From assembly GCA_964016885.1 (NCBI GenBank), contig OZ024740.1, positions 113,212,001-113,276,000 of the forward strand: DNA of 64,000 nucleotides. Reading direction: 5' to 3'. Numbering within the stretch: position 1 is the stretch's first letter; each line of letters starts with the position of its first letter. Both the position numbers and the translations under genes were made by a program. The notes beneath the pieces are model-generated. The model saw nothing but the letters and a program-made list of their open reading frames with translations. It ran no database searches and was not told where the DNA came from. The DNA comes from Eledone cirrhosa (taxonomy: Eukaryota). This document shows positions 1-59,915 of this stretch, piece by piece.

Positions 1-829
1 TGCCACCACTGCACATTAAGTTGGGGTTGATGAAGCAGTTTGTGAAGGCTCTCAACCAATAATCGGCCGCTTTTAAGTACCTTCTTGAGTTCTTCCCCAA
101 GTTATCTGAGGCCAAAATCAAAGGTGGAATTTTTGTTGGACCTCAGATAAAGAAGGTGTTTGAGTCTACAGAGTTCTCCAATAAGCTCTATAGGATTGAG
201 AGAACAGCATGGAACTGTTTCAAGGCAGTTGTTAAGGGATTCCTGGGCATCTACAGAGCTGAAATCTACCAGCAACTGGTGCAGGATCTGATAAAGGCTT
301 TTGGCGCCATGTGATGTAGGATGTCGCTTAAACTCAATATGCGGGACGCTCACCTGGAAACATACAAGGACAATATGGGCGCCTACTCGGAAGAACAAGG
401 CGAACAATTCCACCAAGATGTGAAAGAGATAGAGCGGAGGTACCAGGGCCACTACAATGAAAACATGATGGGGACTATATCTGGGGGCTAGTGCGGGAAT
501 GCGACCTGGACTACAACCGCAAATCCAGGAAATCCAGTCATTTCTGACGTGTATAAGTTGCTTTATATGTTTTATTTGTTTTTACTTGTTTGCTTTTGAT
601 AAGCTTGTGTAATAAAATAAATATATACTCTGTTGATTTAATTATATGAACTGATAAATTTAAAAAAATGTGTTTTTTCTTGAAAAATATGAAAATTTCG
701 AAATATCAAACTCCTGACTATAAACCCAAACTTCTGATTAAATAATAGTGTTTTTTTTTATAATAATGGGATATAACAAACCACGAAATGACACTTAGAA
801 CCGAGGAACAAAAAATATGTTACACGGTG
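1..829 (+). mobile_element. Chapaev3-like (CMC) DNA transposon 3' part with decayed transposase C-terminus
   Basis: From nt 3 reads PPLHIKLGLMKQFVKALNQ*...KIKGGIFVGPQI...EEQGEQFHQD...RRYQG, motifs I recall from Chapaev3 transposases; stops at 60 and 312, frameshift near 478, ends ~547. Terminus ...TTACACGGTG (829) followed by TTA fits CAC/GTG ends with a TWA TSD. Confidence 0.7.
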
Positions 830-1032
830 TTACCAGTGCAATTTTTATCCCCAGCACCCTCTTTTGTTTTAACATTCAGGTTATGGTTATGTTTTCTTAA
901 CTTCATAAGGCATACTGTTGGTTGAGGGAATATTAATCAAAAGTACCACATAAAAGTCTACACTGTAGACTCTACAGTTTTTAAGCCAAGAAAGGAACTT
1001 AACATTGTAACTTTAACACAGCTACTGAGCAT

Positions 1033-1061
1033 CCCCGAGCAACGCCGGGCTTTACTGCTAG
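1033..1061 (+). mobile_element. Helitron-like 3' terminus
   Basis: Imperfect GC hairpin CCCGAGCAACGCCGGG followed ~8 nt later by CTAG|T. No 5' end identified. Confidence 0.55.
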
Positions 1062-1227
1062 TTACTGATAAATCCATAACCATCTAATTCCCGACAAGTG
1101 AATTCTCTTCGGCCAGCAGTCTACAAATGTATGCATCTATCTATCTATTTTTTTTTCATATACCTGTATGTTAAACTCCCCATTTGTATTTGTCCCCTTC
1201 TTTTGTGCTCTTGTGGCTAATAAAGAA

Positions 1228-1284
<57 letters not shown>
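1228..1284. repeat. (ATCT)n microsatellite
   Basis: Direct reading. Confidence 0.95.
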
Positions 1285-1475
1285 GATAACTAGCTATTTA
1301 TAAAGTATCACCCTCTCTCCCTTTCTCTCTCTTTCACCTCACTGTACTTTACGTTACAACCAAGAAACGTCATTTAAGAAATATTTGATAGCGTGCATAA
1401 AATTGACATATATACAGATGAAGAAAATTCCGTGTACAGTCAAAAATTCAATCAACGACAATAATATTATCACCA

Positions 1476-1476
<1 letters not shown>

Positions 1477-1543
<67 letters not shown>
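1477..1543. repeat. (CTA)n microsatellite
   Basis: Direct reading. Confidence 0.95.
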
Positions 1544-2251
1544 GAAACAATAAAATGGTTGAACTACAGTACAAAGCTCATCCATTTTTAGAGAAGTTGT
1601 TTGTTTCGTTAGGAGTTGACCTTGAGTGAAACCTCAACAACAAACAGTGGTATTCATTCTAACGTATAACGCTGCTATTGAGTTAACTGAAACATATTTT
1701 GTTAAATGAAAGGCCAGCTTCACCTTTGAAGATGCGTCTGCTCGTTCTGGGGCGAAATATCAACAAAAATAACAACAGCAAGCACGTGCAATTGTTCTAA
1801 AGTTTAGCATATATTTATTTACCATGTATGTATTTTATTAAATGATAACCCAAGTCAACATTGAACATATGTTTGCTCGATTAGGACTGACATGCGCATA
1901 ACCGACAACAACAGCCTGGAATATATAATTCATTCATTTGACTATAAAGTACAAGTCAATCTTTGGACATATTTCAGGACTGAGCTACGGTTAAACAACT
2001 GAAAGACAACAACAATAACAACACCATCATCTCCATTAAAAACAAAAACACTAGCTACAAACTGGTATAGATATTTTGTCTGGTATTTACTTAATTGTCT
2101 GCTATGTGTTTTATTGAAGATATGATCAAGTCCACCTTTGAATATAGGTGTATGTATTCAAGATTAAGCTGGTTTTAAACAACAAGGAAGATTGACATAT
2201 ATATATTACTGTTTGATAGTTAATTCATTGCCTGTTCAAATTTGATTGAAT

Positions 2252-2553
<302 letters not shown>

Positions 2554-2738
2554 GATAAATCTACCAAGAGTTTACGGTAGTGTCCAATCCGTATGAAGAA
2601 CTCAATGTATTCCGGATATCATGGAAAGAAGAGATGTAATGAAAAACCACTTTCGGTGAAAGATAAACGGTATACAGAGTCAAGATAAAATATTAAACAA
2701 ATAATGAATAAACAATTCCTTATATTAAACAAAAAAAG

Positions 2739-2893
2739 TTCATTATTTAACGATCGTTTCTAGGATATATATGTGTTATAATTGGTATGCATATTCAACA
2801 GATCTATGTACAAAATTATACAAAATTATACAAATTATCAAGATTAAATATACATACCAAACACATATATACGCCGTCTTCAGAAATAATGAA
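2739..2893 (-). ncRNA. Type I hammerhead ribozyme with long stem II (PLE-1 pLTR, left arm)
   Basis: Reverse complement of 14461-14615. Confidence 0.72.
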
Positions 2894-3712
2894 GTATATT
2901 TATTGATAATAACAACAATTCAAAATTTCAGTTCAAAATTGACCAATGAAAACACAAAAGGTTAAATGCAGTTCGGTGTGTGTATATACATGTAAAACCC
3001 TTACACATATTTTACAAAAATGTATGTATAATTTGTATACGCATACTAAAAGGATGGATGCAAATACGAAATTTCAAGGTTAATGTCTCTGTGAGCCTAC
3101 ATGCGCAGATAAGATGCGCATTGATACTTATGAAATCAAGTATATAAATATATTTTTTCATACTCACACATATCAGTACAATCACACATACACGCGCGTA
3201 TATGCATAAATATACACATAACCACGAACATACAAACACACACACACACCCCCACTCACATTTATATATGTGGATATAAAATCATAAGCACATGGATATT
3301 AATTCACTCACATAAAACACTGGCACACACATTTCTAGATCAAGATACAGAAATTAGGTGGGAGGGGGGGGGAGGGTTCAGTATTCAACTGTCTGAGCAA
3401 ACTGTCTAATATAAATGTATCTATAAATTAAGAAAAATAAAAAAATAAAACAATAAAATATAATAAATATAATGTAATATACATACACATACAGATATAT
3501 ACACATACATACATGTACGCACACATAGAAATATTTACGCATACGCACATACACACATACATATACAGTCATACACACACATACACTTACACGAACATAC
3601 ACATACACATATATAAAGATATATATATACACACACACACATACACGCAACACATACACACATACATATATATATAAAAATAAATAATAAAGATATATAC
3701 CTATATATATAT

Positions 3713-3761
<49 letters not shown>

Positions 3762-4160
3762 CACACACATACATCTAAATATACATACACATACATACAC
3801 ACATACATGTACATACATGTACATACATATACGCACATCGATATACATATATATATATATACATATATATATATACACACACATAGACATGTAGATACAT
3901 ACACACACAACTTACATACACACATATATATATACATGTATATTCATACATAGAATTAGATATATAATCATACATACTTATGCACTTACTTATACTCATA
4001 TATACAAATACATACGCATCTATATATGCATATATACATAAAAAAAACTACAACCTCACCTAACTCAGACATACAAATAAAAATAATAATAAAAAGACAT
4101 ATGTATATACATACACACACGCATTAATAGAGATATATATATAGAGACACATACATACAC

Positions 4161-4191
<31 letters not shown>

Positions 4192-4204
4192 TATATATAT
4201 ATAT

Positions 4205-4405
4205 ATAGGAACCAGTAAGACCCCGACAGCTGAGCTCAAGCCGTTTCGACGGCTAATTCTGGACTAGTCCAGAATTAGCCGTCGAAACGGCTTGAGCTCA
4301 GCTGTCGGGGTCTTACTGGTTCCTATTACCCACTCTACTACCTCAAGTATTGAGTACTTTGGTGCGTTATGGTCCACCTGGTTCCTTACCACATTTCCTT
4401 TGTTA
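4205..4405 (+). mobile_element. Family F fold-back element present in the left palindrome arm only
   Basis: Perfect 122-bp palindrome 4205-4326 centred on ACT|AGT plus ~80-bp tail; mirrored (TA)n at ~13146-13172 is uninterrupted. Confidence 0.85.
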
Positions 4406-4442
4406 TATATATATATATATATACACACATACACTCATACAC

Positions 4443-4473
<31 letters not shown>

Positions 4474-4707
4474 CACATAGATATCCACACACTCATACCA
4501 CCATAAATACACATATAAACACCCACATATATATATATATACACACGTATATATATATATATATATATATATACAGACACACATAAAAAACAGACATGCA
4601 CATATATATATATATTAATTACACTTATATATACACATATTATATACACGTACACAACCTCACTTATACATACATACACATAAGTTATATTATAATAATA
4701 AAGAATA

Positions 4708-4754
<47 letters not shown>

Positions 4755-4854
4755 CATATATATACATACATACATACATATACATACATACACATAAACA
4801 TATACATACATAAATACACACATACTAATAAAGACATATATTCACACATAGACA

Positions 4855-4906
<52 letters not shown>

Positions 4907-6052
4907 TATACATATATACACACACACATATACACAGACACATATACACACTCACATATATATATGTGTGTGTGTGCGCACACACACATATGTACACACA
5001 CACACACAAATACACATAAACACATACATATGCATACATGCACACACACACACACATATATCACATAGATACGAAGATAAACATATAAATAGAGAGACAT
5101 ACATATATATACAACACACATACACACACATACATACACACGCATATACATATACACATATATATACATATATATATTCCTATATATACATGCATACACA
5201 TATATACACATATATACACTTACATACACATATACGTACACACATTCACATACACATACATATATAATGCATATATACACATATATACATACATATACAC
5301 ACTCATATATACACACGCAATCTTACATTCATATTTGCATGCGCATATATGTATTTTTATATTTAGATATAAATACCCAAACCTATATAGACACCTACCT
5401 ACATATATATTCATACATAGACGCTTACAAATACAGATGATAATAGTATGGGGGAAAGGGGGGGGGGGTTGGAGAAGGGGATCAAAGTAAATATATGTTT
5501 CAAGAAACATAGAAAATTTTCCGTATTTTTATCCAATGTATGTTCTTACATATTTTCAGTGTTAGGAAATACGACAAACAAGAACTAAGGCAAAATCTAT
5601 GCATCTCAAAATAAATAAGTATATCATTAATTATATGTTAACTAAACCAAAGATAGTCAACATATTGATTTCTAAGGTGTAAATTAGTTAGGTTTATAAT
5701 ATTTGAAGCAGAATTTTGAAGTCAAACAGTAGTAGATTATTAATTACAGTATAACTAAATTAAAGTTAATAACGTTATGGTATCAATATTAGGAAATGAA
5801 TTTAGTAATAGGGAAAAAAATAAAATAAAGTATTACATCGGTAGTAGAATATAAATTATATGTTAACTAAATTAAAAATTATATATTTATTTCAATAGTA
5901 TATGTTAATTAGGTATACAATACATAAAGCAGATACTGTATTTCATCAATAGCATAATATAATTATATGCAAATAGAAATCAAAATTAATACGCATACAT
6001 ATACATATACATACACATACACATATACATACATATACACACACATATATAT

Positions 6053-6111
<59 letters not shown>

Positions 6112-6630
6112 TACATACACATACACATACACACACACACATACACATACACATATACATATACATATCTTTTTCAAAAAATTGCACAGAATATATTAAC
6201 TAGGTATATATCCAGAACGCATCCCATTCTATGAATACATGACATTCTGCAATTCGTCTGTATAAGGATACTAATTTTAAGCAAATTAAAATTAAAATTT
6301 TTAGGTTGATTAAAACTAAAACCAAATAATAAATATATTTCTAAAATGTATATTAATTAGGTCTATAATACTAAAAATTATTTCTCTGTCATTGGATACA
6401 CGATATTATTTTGTTATGTTTTATCTGTAAAAGAGTTATAATAAAAGGTTTAAATAAATTAAAATTAATCTATAAATTAAATTACTAAGTATATATTAGT
6501 AATATTTAAAGGTTTTTCATAATTTATGATTACATAATATTTTATATTCTCATCTGTAATAAAATATTAATTAAATTAAATTTATAGGTTAACTAACATT
6601 TAAATTAAATTAATTTCTAAAATAATGTTA

Positions 6631-8769
6631 TTAATTAGGTTTATAATATTTAAATGTTTTTTTTAGTTTATGATTACACGATATAATTAATTCCTGTCGT
6701 TTATTTAATAAGATATCCTTAGACTTCATTATTTCAAATAGTTCTTGGGAGCATAATCTACATTCATTTCTATTATTTTGATAAGGGGTGGCTCTTTTGA
6801 GCACACTCCAGGTCAAATCATATTTTATATTCTTATTTTTATAACTATTGATTTTTTCTGCTAGAGATGTTGTATTAGCCAGTGCGGCATTTTTAAAACT
6901 ATGCTTGTGGGTATTAAACCTTGTCTTAAAATTGTTAGAGGTAGCTCCTATATATGAGCAAATAGAATCTTTAGTTTTAACATTACATTTATAGACTATG
7001 TTGTTAACAAGACAATTCCCTTTTAATGGGCAGTTTGCTTTGTTTCTACAGTTACATCCTTTCGTTAATTTTGTATTTGAGGAGATATTATGGTTAATTT
7101 GATGTACTGGTGGTATACTTATAGTTTTCTTACATTTATATGCATTATATGCACTTATATTTTGTTTTATGTTATTTGTTGTAGAGTATGAGAATTTAAC
7201 TGTAGACCTATTTAAGATTTGATGGTATTTGTGGTTTGGCGGGAAGTTTTTCTCAAGGATATAAAAAAATTTTTTAGCAATATTATCCTTAACTTGTAAA
7301 TTAAAAGGAGCATTATACCAAGTAACTCGTCTATTACGGTTTCTATGTTGTTTATTATTTTTATTATTTTTATAGGTTGTATCGTGATTTTTACTAGGAG
7401 GATTAATGTTAATGATCTCACCACAACTATTTTTAGTTATATTTGTAGATTTAGGTGTTTTATCTTTTTTATTAGGAGTTTTATTATTAATATTTATTAT
7501 AGTTGTATGATGAGTAGTTTTTTGAGAGTTACTATACTTTATATTAGAAGATTTAGTATTTTGGGGTATAGTGTGGGTGGCATTTAGGTGTGTACTTTTC
7601 ATTTGGTGTTTGTTGGTAATATTATGTTGTATGCTTTCAGTATTTTTAGTAGAAGGTATATATTCTAATCTATTTTTGTGGCCACTTCTATCTAGAGCTT
7701 CGTTATAGAAGGTCGCATTTTTATCAAATACATCTTGGTTAGAAGAAAGGTTAGAAATTCTAAGTGATATATTATATGCAAGGTTTTTAAGGATAGATTT
7801 AGGGTGATTAGATTGTGAGTGTATGTAATGTAAGTTTTGGTTAGGTTTATGGTAAGGTTGGTAGATACCCGTAGCTAAATCTAAAGTTATATCTAGGAAA
7901 TTTACTACTTTACTTGTTTTTTCAAAAGTAATATTAAGATTATAATAGTCTTTAAGGAAAGTTCTAATATGTTTTTTGTTTTTTTCGATTTCTGAAAGGC
8001 TAAGGTTGTTAGAAAGAAGAAGACAGTCATCACGATATAAACCACCTTTGAGGTGGGGAAAAGAGGCATTTATGTTGAAAAGGAGAAAGAGGCCCACAAG
8101 ATCAGTAATTTGGGCGGAATCGCTTGAACCCATAGTAATATCAAAAAGATTACTGTATGTGTTTCTGGTCCAGTATTCACTCTGAAATTCAATAAGTGTT
8201 AGTCTAGCATGTGTAATAATGTTAATGTCATCCAAAGTTAAGTTAGATCTATTTTTAGCAAATATCAATGCTTTGTTCAGGAGTATAGGTGATATAGAAG
8301 AATAGTAATTATCTATATCAAATTGTAGGAAAGAAGCAGAAGATTTACACCTAATATTTTTAAACCAGTTAATTACCTGGGAGGTGTTTTCCCAGAGTGG
8401 TAAAATAACGTGTTTTCTTATTTGTGGGATGACTCTATCTAAAATTTTTTTGCTAATTATTCCAATATCTGATTTGGAGGGACAAATAAGTCTAATAGAA
8501 GGATTTGAGTTAAAGTTAGATTTGTGATCTTTCAGGTTGAAGTGTGGTCTTTTCAATGCCAAAGGTTCAGTTCTATCTTCAATGTTTAGTTTTTTTACTA
8601 TGTTGTGTGTTTTGTTGTTGATGTTGGTGAGTGACACATTATTAGATTTTTTATAATTTTTTCTGAGTTCTTTATATATGAACTCGTTATAATGTTCAAT
8701 ATCCATATGATACAAGTTACCAGTTTTGTCCGAGTGGACATGGATTTTTTTAGACTTTTTTAGGTCCAA
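6631..8769 (-). CDS. PLE RT/GIY-YIG polyprotein, N-terminally truncated
   Basis: DKTG motif, RT motifs QFDIDNYYSSI, MGSSDS, LYRDD, NFLDITL; Cys linker CNCRNKANCPLKGNC; NIVY..SYIG..R..H..E..LLN endonuclease. Starts at TTG; lacks ~100 aa present in the 36874 homologue. Confidence 0.9.
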   Translation of the reverse strand: MDLKKSKKIHVHSDKTGNLYHMDIEHYNEFIYKELRKNYKKSNNVSLTNINNKTHNIVKKLNIEDRTEPLALKRPHFNLKDHKSNFNSNPSIRLICPSKSDIGIISKKILDRVIPQIRKHVILPLWENTSQVINWFKNIRCKSSASFLQFDIDNYYSSISPILLNKALIFAKNRSNLTLDDINIITHARLTLIEFQSEYWTRNTYSNLFDITMGSSDSAQITDLVGLFLLFNINASFPHLKGGLYRDDCLLLSNNLSLSEIEKNKKHIRTFLKDYYNLNITFEKTSKVVNFLDITLDLATGIYQPYHKPNQNLHYIHSQSNHPKSILKNLAYNISLRISNLSSNQDVFDKNATFYNEALDRSGHKNRLEYIPSTKNTESIQHNITNKHQMKSTHLNATHTIPQNTKSSNIKYSNSQKTTHHTTIININNKTPNKKDKTPKSTNITKNSCGEIININPPSKNHDTTYKNNKNNKQHRNRNRRVTWYNAPFNLQVKDNIAKKFFYILEKNFPPNHKYHQILNRSTVKFSYSTTNNIKQNISAYNAYKCKKTISIPPVHQINHNISSNTKLTKGCNCRNKANCPLKGNCLVNNIVYKCNVKTKDSICSYIGATSNNFKTRFNTHKHSFKNAALANTTSLAEKINSYKNKNIKYDLTWSVLKRATPYQNNRNECRLCSQELFEIMKSKDILLNKRQELIISCNHKLKKTFKYYKPN

Positions 8770-8802
8770 TAGGGTAGAATCAAGGTCACTGATTCTACCC
8801 TA

Positions 8803-10941
8803 TTGGACCTAAAAAAGTCTAAAAAAATCCATGTCCACTCGGACAAAACTGGTAACTTGTATCATATGGATATTGAACATTATAACGAGTTCATATATAA
8901 AGAACTCAGAAAAAATTATAAAAAATCTAATAATGTGTCACTCACCAACATCAACAACAAAACACACAACATAGTAAAAAAACTAAACATTGAAGATAGA
9001 ACTGAACCTTTGGCATTGAAAAGACCACACTTCAACCTGAAAGATCACAAATCTAACTTTAACTCAAATCCTTCTATTAGACTTATTTGTCCCTCCAAAT
9101 CAGATATTGGAATAATTAGCAAAAAAATTTTAGATAGAGTCATCCCACAAATAAGAAAACACGTTATTTTACCACTCTGGGAAAACACCTCCCAGGTAAT
9201 TAACTGGTTTAAAAATATTAGGTGTAAATCTTCTGCTTCTTTCCTACAATTTGATATAGATAATTACTATTCTTCTATATCACCTATACTCCTGAACAAA
9301 GCATTGATATTTGCTAAAAATAGATCTAACTTAACTTTGGATGACATTAACATTATTACACATGCTAGACTAACACTTATTGAATTTCAGAGTGAATACT
9401 GGACCAGAAACACATACAGTAATCTTTTTGATATTACTATGGGTTCAAGCGATTCCGCCCAAATTACTGATCTTGTGGGCCTCTTTCTCCTTTTCAACAT
9501 AAATGCCTCTTTTCCCCACCTCAAAGGTGGTTTATATCGTGATGACTGTCTTCTTCTTTCTAACAACCTTAGCCTTTCAGAAATCGAAAAAAACAAAAAA
9601 CATATTAGAACTTTCCTTAAAGACTATTATAATCTTAATATTACTTTTGAAAAAACAAGTAAAGTAGTAAATTTCCTAGATATAACTTTAGATTTAGCTA
9701 CGGGTATCTACCAACCTTACCATAAACCTAACCAAAACTTACATTACATACACTCACAATCTAATCACCCTAAATCTATCCTTAAAAACCTTGCATATAA
9801 TATATCACTTAGAATTTCTAACCTTTCTTCTAACCAAGATGTATTTGATAAAAATGCGACCTTCTATAACGAAGCTCTAGATAGAAGTGGCCACAAAAAT
9901 AGATTAGAATATATACCTTCTACTAAAAATACTGAAAGCATACAACATAATATTACCAACAAACACCAAATGAAAAGTACACACCTAAATGCCACCCACA
10001 CTATACCCCAAAATACTAAATCTTCTAATATAAAGTATAGTAACTCTCAAAAAACTACTCATCATACAACTATAATAAATATTAATAATAAAACTCCTAA
10101 TAAAAAAGATAAAACACCTAAATCTACAAATATAACTAAAAATAGTTGTGGTGAGATCATTAACATTAATCCTCCTAGTAAAAATCACGATACAACCTAT
10201 AAAAATAATAAAAATAATAAACAACATAGAAACCGTAATAGACGAGTTACTTGGTATAATGCTCCTTTTAATTTACAAGTTAAGGATAATATTGCTAAAA
10301 AATTTTTTTATATCCTTGAGAAAAACTTCCCGCCAAACCACAAATACCATCAAATCTTAAATAGGTCTACAGTTAAATTCTCATACTCTACAACAAATAA
10401 CATAAAACAAAATATAAGTGCATATAATGCATATAAATGTAAGAAAACTATAAGTATACCACCAGTACATCAAATTAACCATAATATCTCCTCAAATACA
10501 AAATTAACGAAAGGATGTAACTGTAGAAACAAAGCAAACTGCCCATTAAAAGGGAATTGTCTTGTTAACAACATAGTCTATAAATGTAATGTTAAAACTA
10601 AAGATTCTATTTGCTCATATATAGGAGCTACCTCTAACAATTTTAAGACAAGGTTTAATACCCACAAGCATAGTTTTAAAAATGCCGCACTGGCTAATAC
10701 AACATCTCTAGCAGAAAAAATCAATAGTTATAAAAATAAGAATATAAAATATGATTTGACCTGGAGTGTGCTCAAAAGAGCCACCCCTTATCAAAATAAT
10801 AGAAATGAATGTAGATTATGCTCCCAAGAACTATTTGAAATAATGAAGTCTAAGGATATCTTATTAAATAAACGACAGGAATTAATTATATCGTGTAATC
10901 ATAAACTAAAAAAAACATTTAAATATTATAAACCTAATTAA
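8803..10941 (+). CDS. PLE RT/GIY-YIG polyprotein, N-terminally truncated (identical protein to 6631-8769)
   Basis: Same 712-aa translation; no stops; RT catalytic Asp residues retained. Confidence 0.9.
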   Translation: MDLKKSKKIHVHSDKTGNLYHMDIEHYNEFIYKELRKNYKKSNNVSLTNINNKTHNIVKKLNIEDRTEPLALKRPHFNLKDHKSNFNSNPSIRLICPSKSDIGIISKKILDRVIPQIRKHVILPLWENTSQVINWFKNIRCKSSASFLQFDIDNYYSSISPILLNKALIFAKNRSNLTLDDINIITHARLTLIEFQSEYWTRNTYSNLFDITMGSSDSAQITDLVGLFLLFNINASFPHLKGGLYRDDCLLLSNNLSLSEIEKNKKHIRTFLKDYYNLNITFEKTSKVVNFLDITLDLATGIYQPYHKPNQNLHYIHSQSNHPKSILKNLAYNISLRISNLSSNQDVFDKNATFYNEALDRSGHKNRLEYIPSTKNTESIQHNITNKHQMKSTHLNATHTIPQNTKSSNIKYSNSQKTTHHTTIININNKTPNKKDKTPKSTNITKNSCGEIININPPSKNHDTTYKNNKNNKQHRNRNRRVTWYNAPFNLQVKDNIAKKFFYILEKNFPPNHKYHQILNRSTVKFSYSTTNNIKQNISAYNAYKCKKTISIPPVHQINHNISSNTKLTKGCNCRNKANCPLKGNCLVNNIVYKCNVKTKDSICSYIGATSNNFKTRFNTHKHSFKNAALANTTSLAEKINSYKNKNIKYDLTWSVLKRATPYQNNRNECRLCSQELFEIMKSKDILLNKRQELIISCNHKLKKTFKYYKPN

Positions 10942-11460
10942 TAACATTATTTTAGAAATTAATTTAATTTAAATGTTAGTTAACCTATAAATTTAATTTA
11001 ATTAATATTTTATTACAGATGAGAATATAAAATATTATGTAATCATAAATTATGAAAAACCTTTAAATATTACTAATATATACTTAGTAATTTAATTTAT
11101 AGATTAATTTTAATTTATTTAAACCTTTTATTATAACTCTTTTACAGATAAAACATAACAAAATAATATCGTGTATCCAATGACAGAGAAATAATTTTTA
11201 GTATTATAGACCTAATTAATATACATTTTAGAAATATATTTATTATTTGGTTTTAGTTTTAATCAACCTAAAAATTTTAATTTTAATTTGCTTAAAATTA
11301 GTATCCTTATACAGACGAATTGCAGAATGTCATGTATTCATAGAATGGGATGCGTTCTGGATATATACCTAGTTAATATATTCTGTGCAATTTTTTGAAA
11401 AAGATATGTATATGTATATGTGTATGTGTATGTGTGTGTGTGTATGTGTATGTGTATGTA

Positions 11461-11511
<51 letters not shown>

Positions 11512-12658
11512 ATATATATGTGTGTGTATATGTATGTATATGTGTATGTGTATGTATATGTATATGTATGCGTATTAATTTTGATTTCTATTTGCATATA
11601 ATTATATTATGCTATTGATGAAATACAGTATCTGCTTTATGTATTGTATACCTAATTAACATATACTATTGAAATAAATATATAATTTTTAATTTAGTTA
11701 ACATATAATTTATATTCTACTACCGATGTAATACTTTATTTTATTTTTTTCCCTATTACTAAATTCATTTCCTAATATTGATACCATAACGTTATTAACT
11801 TTAATTTAGTTATACTGTAATTAATAATCTACTACTGTTTGACTTCAAAATTCTGCTTCAAATATTATAAACCTAACTAATTTACACCTTAGAAATCAAT
11901 ATGTTGACTATCTTTGGTTTAGTTAACATATGATTAATGATATACTTATTTATTTTGAGATGCATAGATTTTGCCTTAGTTCTTGTTTGTCGTATTTCCT
12001 AACACTGAAAATATGTAAGAACATACATTGGATAAAAATACGGAAAATTTTCTATGTTTCTTGAAACATATATTTACTTTGATCCCCTTCTCCAACCCCC
12101 CCCCCCCTTTCCCCCATACTATTATCATCTGTATTTGTAAGCGTCTATGTATGAATATATATGTAGGTAGGTGTCTATATAGGTTTGGGTATTTATATCT
12201 AAATATAAAAATACATATATGCGCATGCAAATATGAATGTAAGATTGCGTGTGTATATATGAGTGTGTATATGTATGTATATATGTGTATATATGCATTA
12301 TATATGTATGTGTATGTGAATGTGTGTACGTATATGTGTATGTAAGTGTATATATGTGTATATATGTGTATGCATGTATATATAGGAATATATATATGTA
12401 TATATATGTGTATATGTATATGCGTGTGTATGTATGTGTGTGTATGTGTGTTGTATATATATGTATGTCTCTCTATTTATATGTTTATCTTCGTATCTAT
12501 GTGATATATGTGTGTGTGTGTGTGCATGTATGCATATGTATGTGTTTATGTGTATTTGTGTGTGTGTGTGTACATATGTGTGTGTGCGCACACACACACA
12601 TATATATATGTGAGTGTGTATATGTGTCTGTGTATATGTGTGTGTGTATATATGTATA

Positions 12659-12712
<54 letters not shown>

Positions 12713-12814
12713 TGTCTATGTGTGAATATATGTCTTTATTAGTATGTGTGTATTTATGTATGTATATGTTTATGTGTATGTATGTATATGTATGTATGTA
12801 TGTATATATATGTG

Positions 12815-12861
<47 letters not shown>

Positions 12862-13095
12862 TATTCTTTATTATTATAATATAACTTATGTGTATGTATG
12901 TATAAGTGAGGTTGTGTACGTGTATATAATATGTGTATATATAAGTGTAATTAATATATATATATATGTGCATGTCTGTTTTTTATGTGTGTCTGTATAT
13001 ATATATATATATATATATATACGTGTGTATATATATATATATGTGGGTGTTTATATGTGTATTTATGGTGGTATGAGTGTGTGGATATCTATGTG

Positions 13096-13126
<31 letters not shown>

Positions 13127-13136
13127 GTGTATGAGT

Positions 13137-13200
<64 letters not shown>

Positions 13201-13599
13201 GTGTATGTATGTGTCTCTATATATATATCTCTATTAATGCGTGTGTGTATGTATATACATATGCCTTTTTATTATTATTTTTATTTGTATGTCTGAGTTA
13301 GGTGAGGTTGTAGTTTTTTTTATGTATATATGCATATATAGATGCGTATGTATTTGTATATATGAGTATAAGTAAGTGCATAAGTATGTATGATTATATA
13401 TCTAATTCTATGTATGAATATACATGTATATATATATGTGTGTATGTAAGTTGTGTGTGTATGTATCTACATGTCTATGTGTGTGTATATATATATATGT
13501 ATATATATATATATGTATATCGATGTGCGTATATGTATGTACATGTATGTACATGTATGTGTGTATGTATGTGTATGTATATTTAGATGTATGTGTGTG

Positions 13600-13646
<47 letters not shown>

Positions 13647-14460
13647 ATATATATATAGGTATATATCTTTATTATTTATTTTTATATATATATGTATGTG
13701 TGTATGTGTTGCGTGTATGTGTGTGTGTGTATATATCTATCTTTATATATGTGTATGTGTATGTTCGTGTAAGTGTATGTGTGTGTATGACTGTATATGT
13801 ATGTGTGTATGTGCGTATGCGTAAATATTTCTATGTGTGCGTACATGTATGTATGTGTATATATCTGTATGTGTATGTATATTACATTATATTTATTATA
13901 TTTTATTGTTTTATTTTTTTATTTTTCTTAATTTATAGATACATTTATATTAGACAGTTTGCTCAGACAGTTGAATACTGACCCCCCCCCTCCCACCTAA
14001 TTTCTGTATCTTGATCTAGAAATGTGTGTGCCAGTGTTTTATGTGAGTGAATTAATATCCATGTGCTTATGATTTTATATCCACATATATAAATGTGAGT
14101 GGGGGTGTGTGTGTGTGTTTGTATGTTCGTGGTTATGTGTATATTTATGCATATACGCGCGTGTATGTGTGATTGTACTGATATGTGTGAGTATGAAAAA
14201 ATATATTTATATACTTGATTTCATAAGTATCAATGCGCATCTTATCTGCGCATGTAGGCTCACAGAGACATTAACCTTGAAATTTCGTATTTGCATCCAT
14301 CCTTTTAGTATGCGTATACAAATTATACATACATTTTTGTAAAATATGTGTAAGGGTTTTACATGTATATACACACACCGAACTGCATTTAACCTTTTGT
14401 GTTTTCATTGGTCAATTTTGAACTGAAATTTTGAATTGTTGTTATTATCAATAAATATAC

Positions 14461-14615
14461 TTCATTATTTCTGAAGACGGCGTATATATGTGTTTGGTAT
14501 GTATATTTAATCTTGATAATTTGTATAATTTTGTATAATTTTGTACATAGATCTGTTGAATATGCATACCAATTATAACACATATATATCCTAGAAACGA
14601 TCGTTAAATAATGAA
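14461..14615 (+). ncRNA. Type I hammerhead ribozyme with long stem II (PLE-1 pLTR, right arm)
   Basis: Stem I TTCATTATTT/AAATAATGAA (10 bp), core CTGAAGA 14471-14477, stem II TATATATGTGTT/AACACATATATA plus TGGTATG/CATACCA, GAAA 14594-14597, palindromic stem III ACGATCGT, predicted cut after 14605 (GUU). Confidence 0.75.
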
Positions 14616-14660
14616 CTTTTTTTGTTTAATATAAGGAATTGTTTATTCATTATTTGTTTA

Positions 14661-14710
<50 letters not shown>

Positions 14711-15139: not shown

Positions 15140-16502
<1,363 letters not shown>

Positions 16503-16531
16503 GTTATGTAATAAACAACATAAGATAATTA

Positions 16532-16595
16532 ATTCATTTACCAGTGGTTTCTTGAAGACAGATATTTATATCTGTCTTCAGTCGTCAGAACAAAT
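16532..16595 (-). ncRNA. Type I hammerhead ribozyme (inverted copy)
   Basis: Minus strand ATTTGTT-CTGACGA-C-TGAAGACAGATA(TAAA)TATCTGTCTTCA-A-GAAA-CCACTGG-TA-AATGAAT; stem I closes with two G-U pairs. Confidence 0.7.
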
Positions 16596-16619
16596 CCATA
16601 TTTATAAACATTCCATGTT

Positions 16620-16683
16620 ATTCATTCTGACGACTGCAGACAGATATAAATATCTGTTTTCAAGAAACCACTGGTAAATGAAT
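16620..16683 (+). ncRNA. Type I hammerhead ribozyme
   Basis: Stem I ATTCATT/AATGAAT, CTGACGA 16627-16633, stem II hairpin, GAAA 16664-16667, stem III ACC/GGT, GUA cut after 16676. Confidence 0.8.
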
Positions 16684-16776
16684 TAATTATCCTATGTTGT
16701 TTATTACATAACTAAAAAGCTCTGTAGCCTACATAGAACACTCTCTTTTCCTTTACCTTTCCTACGGAAATACTTC

Positions 16777-17317: not shown

Positions 17318-20646
<3,329 letters not shown>

Positions 20647-21661: not shown

Positions 21662-21714
<53 letters not shown>

Positions 21715-21825
21715 TTGAAATAAAATGAAAACGAAATTTCATTTCTCACTCATAATACGGCACTTACTTAATTGTAAGTATGTATGTATACGTACATACA
21801 TATATGTATACAGACGCACAGTAGC

Positions 21826-21938
<113 letters not shown>

Positions 21939-22093
21939 CATACAGGTACACATACATATATGCACGTATCAGTTTAGCGGACGCTTATTATAACGCCGCT
22001 TTGTTCTTTGGTAAACAAACTGAACAGACTGAATTTATGCCATACGGTGTTAAGGCAACCACGTCACCTTTTTGTTCAACACTGACACAGGAA

Positions 22094-22134
22094 CGATGTA
22101 CTAGTTTCAAGCTTGTTAGGTATCATCAACACCG
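22094..22134 (-). ncRNA. Mutated hammerhead (family H)
   Basis: Core reads TTGATGA and stem II has a mismatch; probably inactive. Confidence 0.6.
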
Positions 22135-22450
22135 TATACCCTTCTGCCAGATAGTTGAAAGTTTGAAAGTATATACTTTCCTTATGAAAATTAACGGCTG
22201 AGCAGCCTAATTTGCATATCGAGTGAGTTAAATCGGTCAGGCATACCGAAAACGATAAGTTGAAATAAAATGAAAACGAAATTTCATTTCTCACTCTTAG
22301 TAGGGCACATACTTAAATGTAAGTATGTATCGTTTTCGGTATGCCTGACCGATTTAACTCACTCGATATGCAAATTAGGCTGCTCAGCCGTTAATTTTCA
22401 CAAGGAAAGTATATACTTTCAAACTTTCAACTATCTGGCAGAAGGGTATA

Positions 22451-22491
22451 CGGTGCTGATGATAGCTAACAAGCTTGAAACTAGTACATCG
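22451..22491 (+). ncRNA. Minimal type I hammerhead ribozyme (family H)
   Basis: CGGTG-CTGATGA-T-AGCT(AACA)AGCT-T-GAAA-CTAG-TA-CATCG; palindromic CTAG loop III; GUA cut after 22486. Confidence 0.85.
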
Positions 22492-22642
22492 TTCCTGTGT
22501 CAGTGTTGAACAAAAAGGTGACGTGGTTGCCTTAACACCGTATGGCATAAATTCAGGCTGTTCAGTTTGTTTACCAACGAACAAAGCGGCGTTATAATAA
22601 GCGTCCGCTAAACTGATACGTGCATATATGTATGTGTACCTG

Positions 22643-22771
<129 letters not shown>

Positions 22772-23007
22772 GCTACTGTGCGTCTGTATACATATATGTA
22801 TGTACGAATACATACATACTTACATTTAAGTAAGTGCCGTACTAAGAGTGAGAAATGAAATTTCGTTTTCATTTTATTTCAACTTATTGTTTTCGGTATG
22901 CCGGACCGATTTAACTCATTCGATATGCAAATTAGGCTGCTCAGCCGTTAATTTTCATAAGGAAAGTATATACTTTCAAACTTTCAACTATCTGGCAGAA
23001 GGGTATA

Positions 23008-23048
23008 CGGTGCTGATGATAGCTAACAAGCTTGAAACTAGTACATCG
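23008..23048 (+). ncRNA. Minimal type I hammerhead ribozyme (family H)
   Basis: Same sequence as 22451-22491. Confidence 0.85.
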
Positions 23049-23456
23049 TTCCTGTGTCAGTGTTGAACAAAAAGGTTACGTGGTTTCCTTAACACCGTAT
23101 GGCATAAATTCAGGCTGTTCAGTTTGTTTACCAACGAACAAAGCGGCGTTATAATAAGCGTCCGCTAAACTGATACGTGCATATATGTATGTGTACCTGT
23201 ATATATATATATATATACATGCTACTGTGCGTCTGTATACATATATGTATGTACGTATACATACATACTTACATTTAAGTAAGTGCCGTACTAAGAGTGA
23301 GAAATGAAATTTCGTTTTCATTTTATTTCAACTTTTCGTTTTCGGTATGCCTGACCGATTTAACTCACTCGATATGCAAATTTGGCTGCTCAGCCGTTAA
23401 TTTTCATAAGGAAAGTATATACTTTCAAACTTTCAACTAACTGGCAGAAGGGTATA

Positions 23457-23497
23457 CGGTGCTGATGATAGCTAACAAGCTTGAAACTAGTACATCG
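23457..23497 (+). ncRNA. Minimal type I hammerhead ribozyme (family H)
   Basis: Same sequence as 22451-22491. Confidence 0.85.
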
Positions 23498-23648
23498 TTC
23501 CTGTGTCAGTGTTGAACAAAAAGGTGACGTGGTTGCCTTAACACCGTATGGCATAAATTCAGGCTGTTCAGTTTGTTTACCAACGAACAAAGCGGCGTTA
23601 TAATAAGCGTCCGCTAAACTGATACGTGCATATATGTATGTGTACCTG

Positions 23649-23697
<49 letters not shown>

Positions 23698-23744
23698 GCT
23701 ACTGTGCGTCTGTATTCATATATGTATGTACGTATATATACATA

Positions 23745-23791
<47 letters not shown>

Positions 23792-23795
<4 letters not shown>

Positions 23796-26090
23796 TCCAG
23801 GATTTACTTGTGCCCTCGGACAAAGCTGGTAATGTATACATGCTTGACCCTTTTACATATAACGACTGCCTCGGGAAAGAGATTAGGAAAAACAATAGGA
23901 CCACAGGACAGACAAATTTAGATAATATTAACGCCACGACAAAAAGTATACTGACGGGGCTAGGACTACATGATAGGACCGAGGTATATGTTCCTAGGAA
24001 ACCACGGATATCTATTAAGGACCATAAATTAGACTTTAAAACAAAACTACCGGTTAGGTTAATAGCACCCTCCAAATCTGACCTAGGCAGGACCAGCAAG
24101 AATATTATAGATAGGATACTACCGGTACTTAGAAACCAAACTAAGCTTAGCCTATGGACCTCCACTGAGGAGGTAATTGACTGGTTCTCGTTAATACAAA
24201 CAACAAGTACATTTTATTTAGTTAGACATAGATAGTTATTACGCGTCAGTATCTCCGATACTAGTCAATAAGGTCCTCATAAGCGCCATGGCCAGATCTA
24301 GCCTCACTAGGGACAAGACCAACCTCATAGTAGCAGCCAGAAAGACGCTAATTAGATTCGAAGACAAGTTATGGGAGAGGAGGGACAGACTCGACAGTTT
24401 CGATATCAGCATGGGGTCGAGTGACTCGGCGCAGGTGACCAACCTTGTGGGGATATATCTCATCCATAGGCTAACGGAGGAGATCCCGAGGATCGGAGGT
24501 GGAATATACAGAGACGACGCACTTTTCACCTTCAGTTCCCTTAACCCCAGTCAGATAGAGCGTATGAGGAAGCGCATATAGCATTTTTTTAAACAACACG
24601 GCTTATCCGTGACAATAGACCCTAGCACTAAGACGGGCAATTTCCTGGACGTTACCTTGGAAATGAATACGGGCATCCACAGACCGTACCATAAGCCCAA
24701 AGAAAACCTGCAATATGTGAACAGGCAATCGAATCACCCTAAGTCAGTCATAGAAGCCATAGTTAAAGGGGTATCCAAACGCGTATCCACCCTGTCATCG
24801 AACGCAGAAGTGTTTAAACAGCATGCCAAATATTATAATGAGGCACTGTGCAGGGCCGGTTACACAGACACCATAATATATACCCCCGGACAGAGTAGAG
24901 CCAAGTAATGAGGCGTGCAGAAATGCCAATAGCGGGGGCGCCTCCGTAGAAGAACTGACACGGTAGCAGTATCCAGGAACACAAATAGTAACACAATTAG
25001 CATTAATGACGCAGGACCGACCGGAGGTAGGACAAAAGCACCCATAGGGGCAAGACCACCCAGTACGCGGAGGCATTGGCCTGGCAAGCACACTGCATGC
25101 TCCGCAGCAACTGGGAGCAGGGACAGGACATCGACAAATACGGACGGGGAACACGCGAGGGAGCACGCCCATTCTGGCTGTAGTGGTACAACACCGACAG
25201 CAGCATCACATAGACCTAAGGGGAATAGACTTATAGCTGACCACATAGAACGACGTAACTTTATAACTGTAGTGCATAATCCCGACGCCCATAGCGGGCA
25301 AATAGATAGAGACAACACACGGGATGTAATTGTGGTTGGGCCGAGCACAGGACGGACATCGAGTCCTGGATACACCGACAAGAATCCACGCACACGAAGG
25401 AACAGATCTAAGGCCGTTACTTGGTTTAATGAGCCTTACTCCAAACATGTACGCACCAACGTGCCAGAACCTTTTTTCCGAGCGTTGGATGAGTGCTTTC
25501 CGCCGAACAAGTACCACAAAATCTTCAACCCCCACACGGTGAAGTTTTCCTTCTCCACAGCACCTAATATGGTCGACTACATGGCTAAAACTAACGCGGT
25601 GAAGATGGCGCACACTGGCCGTCAACCGCGGCGACAGAGTGACCGTCTTTCGGAGCGTGGAGAACCACCCAGGGACCTGCCCTCAAATGACAACCAGGCC
25701 CCCGAGGCTACCAGAGCGCCCGCGGAGGGTGATGTGGTCCAAGGCCGAGAGGGAAATAGTGGCATGGAGGAGACAACAGTGTCGGTGGTACAACACCCTG
25801 AGAACCTTGAGAGCGCCATAACAGATCGAGGCCCGGACATCGGATGCATAAGAACTGACAACAGAACTTGTAACTGCAGAGCGGGCACTCGGTGCCCCCT
25901 ACAGGGAAAATGCCTGGTGAAGGACCTAATATACAAGTGTGTGGTTACAACCCAAAACGCGCATCGCACCTACATCGGCGCAACATCCACGACCTTTAAA
26001 TCGCAGATGTATAATCACACGAATTATTTCAGGGACCGTAGCAAAAGGCACTTCACTAGGTTAGCGGACCTGGTGTGGGACCTGAGAAGA
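23792..26090 (+). pseudogene. Disrupted PLE RT/GIY-YIG ORF
   Basis: SDKAGN, MGSSDSAQV, IYRDD, NFLDVTL, WFNEPYS, CNCRAGTRCPLQGKC, LIY..TYIG in split ORFs 23696-24235, 24288-24581, 24609-24908, 25272-26204; similarity is lost after LADLVWDL. Confidence 0.9.
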
Positions 26091-26562
26091 TGCACATTTG
26101 CAGCATGGAATCCTCCGGGTGGCGCAGGCCGGGGCATGGGAACGGGTACACACAGACCCGAGCAGACCAACGGGATTAGGGGACCTGACGCCAAGCCCCG
26201 ATGACAGTATGCGACCCGTGAGGCAAACATATGTAAACCAGAGGCGCACCTGACCGAGTACACAACATTGGAAGATACATCGCCTGGGCCGGGAGCGGCT
26301 AACACGGGGCTCACGGCCGCCCGGTCCAATACCCCAAACATAGAACAGCACACACCAGCCACGGTGCCATGCCTCATGGTGACCGGGCCGGTTTTGTTTA
26401 TATATGTATATGTGGAAACATGTGTATGTAAGCAAATATGCATATGTACAGGTGTCTGCATGTGGCAGTCCGTGTGCGTATGTATATGTAGATGTATATA
26501 TGTTTGCATGTGTATATGTATGTATATGTGTAGGTGTGCATATGCATGTAGGGTTTTTTCCG

Positions 26563-29866: not shown

Positions 29867-29877
29867 TATATATATAT

Positions 29878-32120
<2,243 letters not shown>

Positions 32121-33729: not shown

Positions 33730-37029
<3,300 letters not shown>

Positions 37030-37449
37030 TTATATATATATATATGTGTGTGTATGTGTGTGTGTGTATGTATGTGTGTGTGCCCGCGCATATGTGTATG
37101 CATGTGAGTGACTGTGTGCGTATGTGTCTTTCACGGTGTGGAATCTCACTTTGCCTATAATAACTGTGGTTACAGAGAACGTTATTACCAGTAACAAAAC
37201 TAACGAAACTACTTTGCTATCACAAAGCTAGACATATCCTTGTTGGTTATGTGAAATAGTTAAGAAATATTTAGAGGGATAAAATCCACTCCATAGTAAA
37301 CATGGTGCAACGTATTTTCAACAGCATTATTGTTCGTTTTGTATGTATGTATCGACGCCTATCTCCTGATGCAGTCGTAGGGTCGCTGCTTTTAAACCTG
37401 GCTGAACCCCTATCCTTATCTCCAGTGAAGTTGGAATAGAGAGTGAGAG

Positions 37450-37497
<48 letters not shown>

Positions 37498-37573
37498 GGG
37501 GGGGGGAGAAGAAGAAGAAGAAGAAGAAGAAGAAGAAGAAGAAGAAGAAGAAGAAGAAGAAGAAGAAGAAGAA

Positions 37574-37975
37574 AAGAAACTGGAACACAATAGACCTGAC
37601 CTGGTGGTTTGGGACAAAGAAAAAAGATCGTGCCTGATTGTGGATGTGGCCTGCCCATTCGACACGAGTGTGCAAGAGAAGGAGAGGGAGAAAATTAACC
37701 GATACCAGGACTTAAAGTGGGAGGTAAAAAGGATTTGGAACTGCCATGAAGTCAAAGTGATCCCGATTGTTATAGGCGCACTAGGGACTATCTCAAAAGG
37801 GATGGTTAAAGAAAATTGGCCCCTTCACGCTTTTTGGAACGCTTCAAAAGGCATGCTTGCTGGGAACAGCAAGAACCCTCCGATACGTCCTGAATATCTG
37901 AGGCTACAGGTAGTGGCTTGATATTCATTTCAACAAACTTTCCAGTTAACTAACATCAATGACTGAGACTCAAAG
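37574..37975 (+). mobile_element. 3' fragment of R4/Dong-like RLE LINE
   Basis: KKLEHNRPDLVV..IVDVACPFD..EKINRY; near-identical to the 3' end of 54797-58330; preceded by (GAA)n, followed by (AAT)n. Confidence 0.9.
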
Positions 37976-57700: not shown

Positions 57701-58330
57701 ATTCATCTACCACTAAGTTTAGGATATCTACCAAATTTTGTCCTAGCCCGTCAGCATTCCTATCCTCAGTGGCCGTATCTCTGTTCCAGGTATTATTTAT
57801 CTCTGTATTCAGATCATTGTCTGTTTCGGGTGGTTCCTCCGTTCTCTCGACCTCTTCACCTTCATTTCCCACTGGCTCGTTTGCCTGGAATACTCCACCC
57901 TTCATCTCCAAGCTAATCTCTCTGCTCAGTTCCTCCAGTTCCAGCTCGCTTATCCACCCATTAGTTCTTATTACCCGAGCCTGCCCGGCCAGTTTTTGTT
58001 CATCTAATTTAAATGGACCAATCTCGTTCCGGATGTTATGCATCCTTTTCCTATAGCCTTTCTCCTTGGGGTTACTCTTCAGGTAACATTGCATAACAGT
58101 TCTATTCAATTCTTTCGTCCAGTTGGTTCTGGTCCCTTTCCTTCTTCTTCTTCCTCCGACACCAGCAGTATTTGGTTGATAGCCAGGTCCCTGCTGCTGA
58201 GCCAGGGAGCACCTGTTGGGTGAGAGTCTGTCACATGACATTCTAGTCTCCATTTTACCGTTATTCGAACTGTTTAGGTTCGACATTTAAACACTCTTAT
58301 CGAGGATTGGCGAATGTATGGTTACATAAC
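54797..58330 (-). mobile_element. R4/Dong-like non-LTR retrotransposon (single ORF: RT, CCHC, restriction-like endonuclease), near full length, disabled
   Basis: ORF pieces 58286 to 54866: KSPGPDG, YRPITCL, QKGCR, WID*KKAFD, IFQGDSL, HLLFMDDLKL, CRICG..H..C, RPDLV..D..P..EKINRY; several stops/frameshifts; 3' end abuts poly(A)/(TAA)n. Confidence 0.9.
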
Positions 58331-58611
58331 CACCGGTGAATTACTTGTCTCCGGTGGTTTCGTCACTCCACGTGACTTTTGTGTGGCATTATCACGCTGT
58401 AGACGAACCCAAATAAACAAACAAACAAACAGGCAGAAAAAACCCAAAAAATGAATAAGCATAAGTTTCATTGTAATGTAGTGTTTGAATGTCTGACATA
58501 GTTTTTCCCTTCCCTTCTCTGTCCATCCGTTTGTTTTTCTCTTCATTTTTATTTCCTTTACGTTTTCGTTGTTGCTGTGCTGCTTTGATTTTTATTTTTG
58601 TTTTTTTTTAA

Positions 58612-59915
58612 ATTTTGACCGGGTCATCAATTCAGTCTATTTATACATTTTGATGCCTTCCTCTTTTAGTGAGAACTCTACAATGTAGCAGGGGCTAGCG
58701 GGAGAGAATAGCGGCGGTAGTGACAATGAGGCAGCGGCGGCGGCGATGACGGTGCTGTCCCAGCAGAAACTAGCAGGAGGTAGTGGGAGAGAATAGCGGC
58801 GGCATCGATAATGAGGCAGCGGCGGTGGCGATGTGGTCGTATTACTGTAGCGATGGTGTTGAAGATGGAGTAGAAATTTGAGTCGACTTGACCAGAGTTT
58901 TCATTATGGCAGTGGTGGTGGCACTGGTGGTGAAATTATCATTAGTCGCGTATATGTGTTGACATATTTTCTTAATATTGGAATTAAACATTTTGTTTAA
59001 ACTAAAACTTGATTTTGATTATTGTTTTTTTTTTTTGATTTTGACCCGGTCATCAATTCAGTCTATTCATATATTTTGATGTTTTCCTCTTTTAGTGAGA
59101 GTTATACAATGTAGCAGGGGGTAGCGGGAGAGAATAGCGGCGGTAGTGATATTGAGGCAGCGGCGGCGGTGGTGGTGGCGGTGCTTGGCCAGCAGCAACT
59201 AGCAGGAGGTAGTGGGAGAGAGTAGCGGCGGTAGCGATAATGAGGTAGTGCTGGTGGTGATGATGTGGTCGTATTACTGTAGTGATGGTGTTGAAGTTGG
59301 AGTAGAAATTTGAGTCGACTTGATCAGAGTTTTCATCGTGGTAGTGGTGGTGGTATTGGTGGTGAAATTATCTTTAGTGAAATTATCATTAGTCGCGTAT
59401 ATGTGTTGACATATTTTCTTAATATTGGAATTAAACATTTTGTTAAAACTAAACCTTGATTTTTTTTTTTTTTTTTTTAATTTTTATTTTGACCAGGTCA
59501 TCAATTCAGTCTATTTATATATTTTGATGTTTTCCTCTTTTAGTGGGAATTCTACAATGTAGCAGGGGATAGTAGCGGGAGAGAATAGTGGCGGTAGTGA
59601 TATTGAGGCAGCGGCGGCGGTGGTGGTGGTGGTGGTGGCGGTGCTGTGCTAGCAGCAACTAGCAGGAGGTAGTGGGAGAGAATAGCGGCGGTAGCGATAG
59701 TGAGGCACCGGTGGTGGTGATGTGGTCGTATTACTGTAGTGATGGTGTTGAAGTTGGTGTAGAAATTTGAGTCGACTTGACCAGAGTTTTCATCGTGGTA
59801 GTGGTGGTGGTATTGGTGGTGAAATTATCTTTAGTGAAATTATCGTTAGTCGCGTATATGTGTTGACATATTTTCTTAATGTTGGAATTAAACATTTTGT
59901 TAAAACTAAAACTTG
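58612..59915. repeat. Three diverged tandem units of ~425-450 bp, G-rich on +
   Basis: TTTTGACC-GGTCATCAATTCAGTCTATT at ~58614, ~59039, ~59487; each preceded by a T run. Confidence 0.9.

Follow-up and report, generated by a model that had tools for sequence, protein, structure and literature searches.

The window analyzed here is a 64,000-nt stretch of the Eledone cirrhosa genome (GenBank assembly GCA_964016885.1, contig OZ024740.1, positions 113,212,001 to 113,276,000 of the forward strand). Near its left end lies a 12-kb palindrome made of two copies of one Penelope-like element (PLE), joined head to head at their truncated 5' ends. Self-comparison of the window centers the inverted repeat on a 7-nt loop, AGGTCAC (8783-8789). 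Pairing is exact over the 2718 bp that adjoin the loop and involves 5879 bases overall (5.88-kb arms), and the arms are 99.3-99.6% identical outward as far as 2685/14669. The left arm (2551-8787, minus strand) extends from unit position 441 to the 3' end of the element, whereas the right arm (8790-14669, plus strand) covers unit positions 446-6325. At the center the left arm is therefore 5 nt longer, and it includes five of the seven loop bases (AGGTC, 8783-8787), which are native element sequence; the remaining AC is foreign or untemplated. The native upstream sequence offers a TCAA/TTGA stem at the junction site, which was left unused. The AGGTCAC junction is single-copy in the genome, where no second palindrome at this junction site was found.

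The outer ends differ in that the left one carries a tail of 134 nt (2551-2684, minus strand) that is absent from the right arm; both abut (TA)n, at 2518-2550 and 14667-14708. An earlier note on this DNA was right to describe a head-to-head palindrome with a 7-nt loop, a single PLE family and insertion event, an enclosing (TA)n and a surplus of about 135 nt on the left. The arms are not identical, however: their alignment shows three substitutions (5632/11932, 4097/13264 and 3622/13737), a 5-nt indel at 3373-3377, five small indels in microsatellites or homopolymers, and a 197-bp insertion found only in the left arm (4208-4404, plus strand), which the note missed. Two more apparent mismatches, at 4184 and 4188, reflect shifts of register in TA. 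The nested 197-bp element, itself in (TA)n, has 58-bp arms without a loop and an 81-nt tail, carries only the back half of a hammerhead, and belongs to a second family with 513 candidates in the genome.

Each arm contains most of one open reading frame (ORF), and the ORF DNA is identical between them. The left ORF (6631-8787, minus strand) encodes residues 96-813, and the right ORF (8791-10941, plus strand) residues 98-813, of a protein that other copies of the family encode in full: these reach 445 nt further 5', where the true start of the 813-aa protein lies. Both window ORFs are therefore without the first 95-97 residues, and the first AUG in the right arm (8866, giving 691 aa) corresponds to residue 123. 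The earlier note's uninterrupted, identical frames are real, but its figure of 712 aa takes a TTG as the start; from stop to stop, the frame comprises 722 codons. Its suggestion that the entire element had been copied fails, as 440-445 nt of the 6.46-kb unit, start codon included, are missing. Because both ORFs lack a start, the window copy is likely unable to move by itself. The ORF is followed by 3.5 kb of microsatellite-rich non-coding DNA (10942-14459, plus strand), mirrored in the left arm.

The family comprises thousands of copies. A first look with the ORF start region gave 2123 candidates in the 3.0-Gb genome, and the 41 matches listed are 99-100% identical. The unit measures 6459 nt, the numbering counting one base twice at the tail boundary (6325/6326). 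In tandem copies, the 134-nt tail runs into the 5' untranslated region of the next unit, a junction seen in at least 26 of 28 loci. The full protein shows the motifs RWR (residue 37), DKT (115), CNCRNKANC (673), CRLC (771) and CNH (799), as well as YRDD and SYIG; the right ORF in the window retains DKT, CxCx5C, SYIG, CxxC and CxH, and its RWR motif has been cut off. The nearest Atlas clusters score 0.96-0.98, and some of them carry GIY-YIG or RVT_1. A Pfam search with five frames returned nothing above the cut-off, the truncated frame having no reverse transcriptase (RT) or GIY-YIG match. A CCHH endonuclease motif was not seen in the 813-aa protein by eye, an inspection made without an alignment to CCHH-bearing endonucleases.

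A single ORF with a PLE-type RT and a GIY-YIG endonuclease places the family among the endonuclease-containing PLEs, whose characteristic layout it also has: partial tandems forming pseudo-long terminal repeats (pLTRs), an inverted 5' copy and a one-sided tail, here of 134 nt. Within that group, the RWK-type, DKT, CxCx5C, CxxC and CxH motifs, the C-terminal endonuclease and insertion into (TA)n are those of the Hydra clade. The 6.46-kb unit departs from that clade's length of generally under 3 kb, given in PMC8557442 as a tendency and not as a defining trait. By its motifs and its (TA)n target, we place the element in a young, abundant Hydra-clade family. At another locus (L003, 1-796), a different Hydra-like ORF adjoins a truncated pLTR of the window family in the same orientation.

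Each arm also bears one outward-facing type I hammerhead-like motif, at 14461-14615 (plus strand) and 2739-2893 (minus strand), approximately 55 nt and 190 nt inside the right and left outer ends, respectively. It consists of a 10-bp stem I, CUGAAGA, a 116-nt stem II region, GAAA and a minimal palindromic stem III, the last being likewise minimal in other animal PLE motifs (PMC4209133). The type I core, an NUH site, and stems I and III are all present, with the cut predicted after GUU at 14605. The sequence GAAACGATCGTT occurs in 159 of the 160 copies read, a conservation that is not independent because the search pattern required the core; 17 copies have a G-U-compatible variant of stem I. 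The G10.1-C11.1 pair that closes stem II (compare PMC4209133) is absent, CC-UA before GAAA leaving two extra bases. The hammerhead fold lies 3.2 kcal/mol above the minimum, and free folding of 14450-14669 yields a strong stem II hairpin (z -5.8) rather than the hammerhead topology. Rfam gave no hammerhead match over 14400-14680, only microsatellite-driven microRNA noise, and none among the 150 of 183 window-wide matches listed. The earlier note's terminal hammerheads are thus present as outward-facing motifs, but with an atypical stem II base, short of the ends and without an Rfam match; we regard the motif as an atypical, predicted ribozyme. Its predicted cut site coincides with a 5' end at one locus only (L121) and is not a common junction end. 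The junction overlap at L121 equals the 10-bp stem I complementarity, and the partner starts at the predicted cleavage site.

Genome-wide, the family has two fixed outer ends, 134 nt apart. Searches with exact 30-mers found the tailed end joined to (TA)n 3813 times and the tail-less end 1914 times, counted as exact end-to-TA junctions, compared with none for controls; each end shares 3 nt with TA. Of the 46 tail-less ends within the first 110 Mb of contig C1, 33 face a tailed partner head to head at a distance of up to 15 kb, where 0.4 would be expected by chance, and these pairs span 96 bp to 14.5 kb. Inspection by eye of the 100 tailed ends listed revealed no tailed/tailed head-to-head pair within 15 kb. 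For a census of junctions, the DNA at 96 of 100 listed tail-less ends was resolved into 93 loci, all anchored on the tail-less end and excluding the window, with classes assigned by hand with the aid of k-mer maps.

Head-to-head pairing of a tailed and a tail-less arm is the usual form, found at 79 of the 93 loci. In 27, both arms end within unit positions 6116-6131, producing mini-palindromes at what we call the stop site; another four are near-symmetric, one of them long (L064, with 4.86-kb arms that both end at 1083). The arms do not overlap at 10 loci, where the tailed arm is tail sequence alone and has nothing in common with its partner (e.g. L045). The tail-less arm is the longer at 23 loci and its partner at 15, so that the tail-less arm exceeds the tailed one in 33 cases versus 15 (sign test, p = 0.013), with L071, L096 and L112 equivocal among the 33. 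A tail-less arm without a partner within 10 kb was found at 12 loci, and two loci could not be assigned. Such solitary arms reach 5.7 kb (L074), and one pair is tail-less/tail-less (L112), which indicates that the tail-less end can form without a tailed cDNA. Paired arms are nearly always closer to each other than to other copies: across the ORF, they differ at 0-1 of 1351 positions at four loci, versus 1-7 for the nearest other copy, and the arms of asymmetric loci (0-3 differences in about 300 nt) are as alike as those of symmetric ones. Besides the window, paired arms of about 4.7 kb or more occur at 7 of the 93 loci. Long palindromes with a short loop are rarer, at 1 of 93, which extrapolates to approximately 20 among the 1914 ends (95% range 0.5-112), an estimate resting on that one locus.

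The stop site (14460-14475 in the right arm, plus strand; mode at unit position 6120, or 14464) is the center of at least 657 mini-palindrome junctions elsewhere in the genome. Both arms end there at 27 loci, compared with 12 expected (Fisher p = 1e-13), and when a tail-less arm ends there, the partner extends past the site in 0 of 34 cases and is shorter in seven. This coupling, together with the absence of partners beyond the site, suggests a single RNA whose 5' end both cDNAs reached; the stop site probably marks where a short template RNA begins. The strand-switch joint 14463/14464 is also present in raw reads of run X17 (four reads, three starts) and in an X2 contig, and X1 contains a loose end that matches it. 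The mode is the A of TCATT, a sequence we take to be initiator-like. Several junctions add a C after this A (L043, L126 and others), as a cap would template, which we offer as a lead only. Among the 27 mini-palindromes, 14 have loops of 0-1 nt, seven of these with AT or TA overlaps that fit the annealing of two 3' ends.

Three other readings were rejected: hammerhead cleavage as the cause of the common stop, with the cut predicted at 6261 and the stop at 6120; a single recopied master palindrome, given the many different junction sequences among the 50 listed; and use of the site as the start of full-length templates, since 0 of 28 long copies begin there. Four of these 28 copies (L016, L004, L011 and L021) begin in or just before the tail of the upstream unit, at 6326, 6414, 6442 and 6303, as if the first cDNA had stopped at the second start site; L016 (921) starts at the tail boundary beside TA-rich DNA. 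Two other loci, L069 and L089, have a common breakpoint at 237 followed by the same seven bases but different partners, and may represent a subfamily variant or a re-copied structure.

These observations suggest to us, with rather better than even confidence, that the family inserts by twin priming at two fixed sites, followed by end joining. Both nicked strands of the (TA)n target would each prime a cDNA, one starting at the tail end and the other 134 nt further in, and both would copy one RNA, often stopping at its 5' end. Annealing of the 3' ends of the cDNAs would then involve 0-5 matching bases or a small number of extra nucleotides (AC in the window), with each joined cDNA serving as the template for the other's second strand. 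In the window, the two stops would have fallen no more than 5 nt apart, where the RNA was broken or synthesis paused; after insertion, the arms would have gained the three substitutions and the left arm its 197-bp insertion. The process may further be programmed, a protein dimer setting both target strands on one RNA at the two start sites; tail and inverted copy would then be one signature, and the family would routinely write inverted repeats of 0.1-14 kb, some tens of them multi-kilobase and near-perfect. We see the case for this programmed form as evenly balanced, and give the same even weight to its corollary that the 657 mini-palindromes show where a short, capped pLTR RNA begins.

Several points weigh against twin priming. 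The window junction itself does not discriminate, as a 7-nt loop and a tailed arm longer by 5 nt fit fold-back equally well. Four junctions (L095, L105, L109 and L114) have a native 5-bp stem and a 7-nt loop, as fold-back would leave, although the tail-less arm is the longer in three of them; L111, a perfect palindrome whose center is foreign, is also fold-back-like. At the 15 loci with the longer partner, synthesis would have had to displace the leading cDNA or use a second RNA, and asymmetric loci could also arise by one-sided deletions after insertion. None of 28 copies spanning the 5' part of the ORF begins at the stop site. The strict tailed/tail-less pairing is not in itself predicted by the in vitro behavior of an anole PLE, which, in the experiments described in PMC11167929, used both start sites on either strand. 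The census covers exact-match ends on one chromosome, and its classes were assigned by hand, with some junctions in microsatellites and automated calls that included misses and false centers. No reads crossing the junction of the window were found in four sequencing runs, which contain the family but apparently derive from other samples. Among the sequencing runs listed as matching, the best share 0.48-0.66 of the words and seem to come from other samples, and none is an RNA run.

The strongest competitor, although we think it unlikely, is fold-back self-priming, the origin proposed in the earlier note and, in a variant form, by Arkhipova (2013). A single cDNA started at the tail would stop at 441, gain untemplated bases, snap back and copy itself; the endonuclease or a second nick would trim the copy at the tail boundary, and asymmetry would arise through longer loops or later central deletions. 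Besides the loop and the 5-nt difference in the window, which permit this route there, it is favored by the second long case (L064), the identity of paired arms, the strict tailed/tail-less pairing and the four native-stem junctions. Long palindromes do suffer central deletions. Fold-back fits the family poorly as a general route, however: the second arm of a folded cDNA must lie within the first, and at 33 of the 79 head-to-head loci (three of them equivocal) it could not be such a copy unless deletions followed. These are the 10 non-overlapping loci and the 23 with a longer tail-less arm, to which the 12 solitary tail-less arms can be added. Hairpin loops need about 3 nt, so the 14 loops of 0-1 nt are too tight for hairpin priming. 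Moreover, the seven asymmetric loci in which the tail-less arm still stops precisely at the stop site would need one-sided deletions starting from the center, the arms of asymmetric loci are as alike as those of symmetric ones, and in the window fold-back would depend on untemplated bases for its stem, the native TCAA/TTGA stem having gone unused.

Still less probable, in our judgment, is that the two cDNAs were copied from different RNAs held in a protein dimer and stopped independently, the symmetry in the window reflecting a pause site. Three other arms do end close to the 441/446 of the window, at 438, 465 and 467 (L087, L092 and L085), making the 438-467 region a possible pause or break site, and asymmetry runs in both directions (33 versus 15). 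Stops are nevertheless coupled far beyond independence, paired arms have variants in common, tailed/tailed pairs are nearly absent, and the genome holds no second palindrome at the window's site. Finally, long palindromes are a known failure mode of assembly, and no junction-spanning read was seen in the four runs, but an artefact is very improbable indeed: a fold-back read would also mirror tail and flank, whereas here the mirror halts at the family's tail-less end, both flanks are single-copy within the window and the preceding 10 kb, each substitution pairs the commonest or a common family allele in one arm with a private allele in the other (two left, one right; 2, 12 and 33 family copies read), the nested insertion is confined to the left arm, and the same class of junction is found in raw reads. 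Judged by this anatomy, the palindrome in the assembly is not an artefact.

The twin priming proposed here differs in its geometry from that of L1. In L1, too, priming by the second target strand is internal and uses the same RNA, and the inversion junction shows microhomology, but the position of the internal site is variable and there is little overlap between the arms; the present family has a fixed site, and kilobases can be present in both arms. Further parallels come from PAc, the Poseidon element of Anolis carolinensis (Frangieh et al. 2024, PMC11167929), for which both target strands were nicked and extended in vitro, the RT started at two sites bounding the tail, and a dimer was predicted. 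PAc also resembles the window family in its AT-rich target. It belongs to another clade, and the account in PMC11167929 leaves the later steps open and inverted insertions unexplained. We found no twin-priming model for PLE inversions in the openly accessible literature, subscription papers being outside the scope of this search.

The general layout is known from other PLEs. An inverted, 5'-truncated copy with a one-sided tail is described in the legend to Fig. 2 of PMC8557442 (Craig et al. 2021), and the Penelopes of Adineta vaga have head-to-head copies, a palindrome at the junction and a tail at one end only; self-priming was proposed for these in 2013 (PMC3846280), in contrast to the two primed cDNAs favored by our census. 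The inverted part in the window, 5.9 kb with most of the ORF, far exceeds the approximately 200-bp pLTRs and 18-38-bp palindromes given in PMC8557442 and PMC3846280. With the Hydra clade as described in PMC8557442, the window family has in common the RWR/K, DKT, CxCx5C linker, CxxC and CxH motifs, the C-terminal GIY-YIG domain, a hammerhead motif and insertion into (TA)n. It differs in its size (a unit of 6.46 kb, of which 3.5 kb are non-coding and rich in microsatellites, versus generally under 3 kb), in its tail (134 nt, versus 30-40 bp for PLEs) and in its hammerhead, whose stem II region spans 116 nt and whose core lacks an adjoining G10.1-C11.1 pair.

The window palindrome is an unusually long example of the family's normal head-to-head landing. 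As a locus it is probably inert, and its layout has been published before. The value lies more in the family and its junction census: PMC8557442 names the origin of PLE inverted copies and one-sided tails as open, and thousands of young insertions supply the junctions that separate fold-back from twin priming. The many long inverted repeats seeded by the family also offer a way to see, in nature, how stable palindromes are in the germ line of an animal, and they may give rise to double-stranded RNA where host transcripts extend into them. Because both arms have lost the start of the element and their pLTRs point outward, a 6-kb hairpin RNA from the window, as the earlier note envisaged, would require transcription entering from outside or an antisense promoter.

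The second family consists of palindrome-plus-tail elements of approximately 200 bp in (TA)n, represented in the window by the nested insertion at 4208-4404 and by a separate neighbor of the large palindrome in the same TA run (2351-2518, plus strand). Three more pieces, parted by short TA runs, lie at 31667-32040. Elsewhere in the genome (L131-L160), its members again have no more than the back half of a hammerhead. A zero-loop center with a TA overlap is common to most top copies, in a sample biased by a query that included the center; variant junctions occur at L147, L149, L155 and L156.

The window also contains other repeats. Two tandem arrays with a unit of about 610 bp, in opposite orientation and bounded by TA, occupy 17341-20141 and 29877-31454; their units are 97-99.8% alike within an array and 81% between arrays, with no hammerhead found in the scan. 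A hammerhead-like match at 16620-16680 (CTGACGA at 16627, 7-bp stem I) lies inside an inverted repeat (16501-16714). Nested inverted and tandem 449-bp repeats (21710-23789) lie beside a PLE RT fragment (23618-24235), and decayed fragments of other Hydra-like PLE families, with DKT and CxC-linker motifs recognized by eye, are found at 24933-26204 and 35278-36886. Broken frames of a non-long terminal repeat retrotransposon lie on the minus strand at 54866-58286, with a related fragment at 37406-37921, and a 457-bp tandem repeat occupies 58585-59916.

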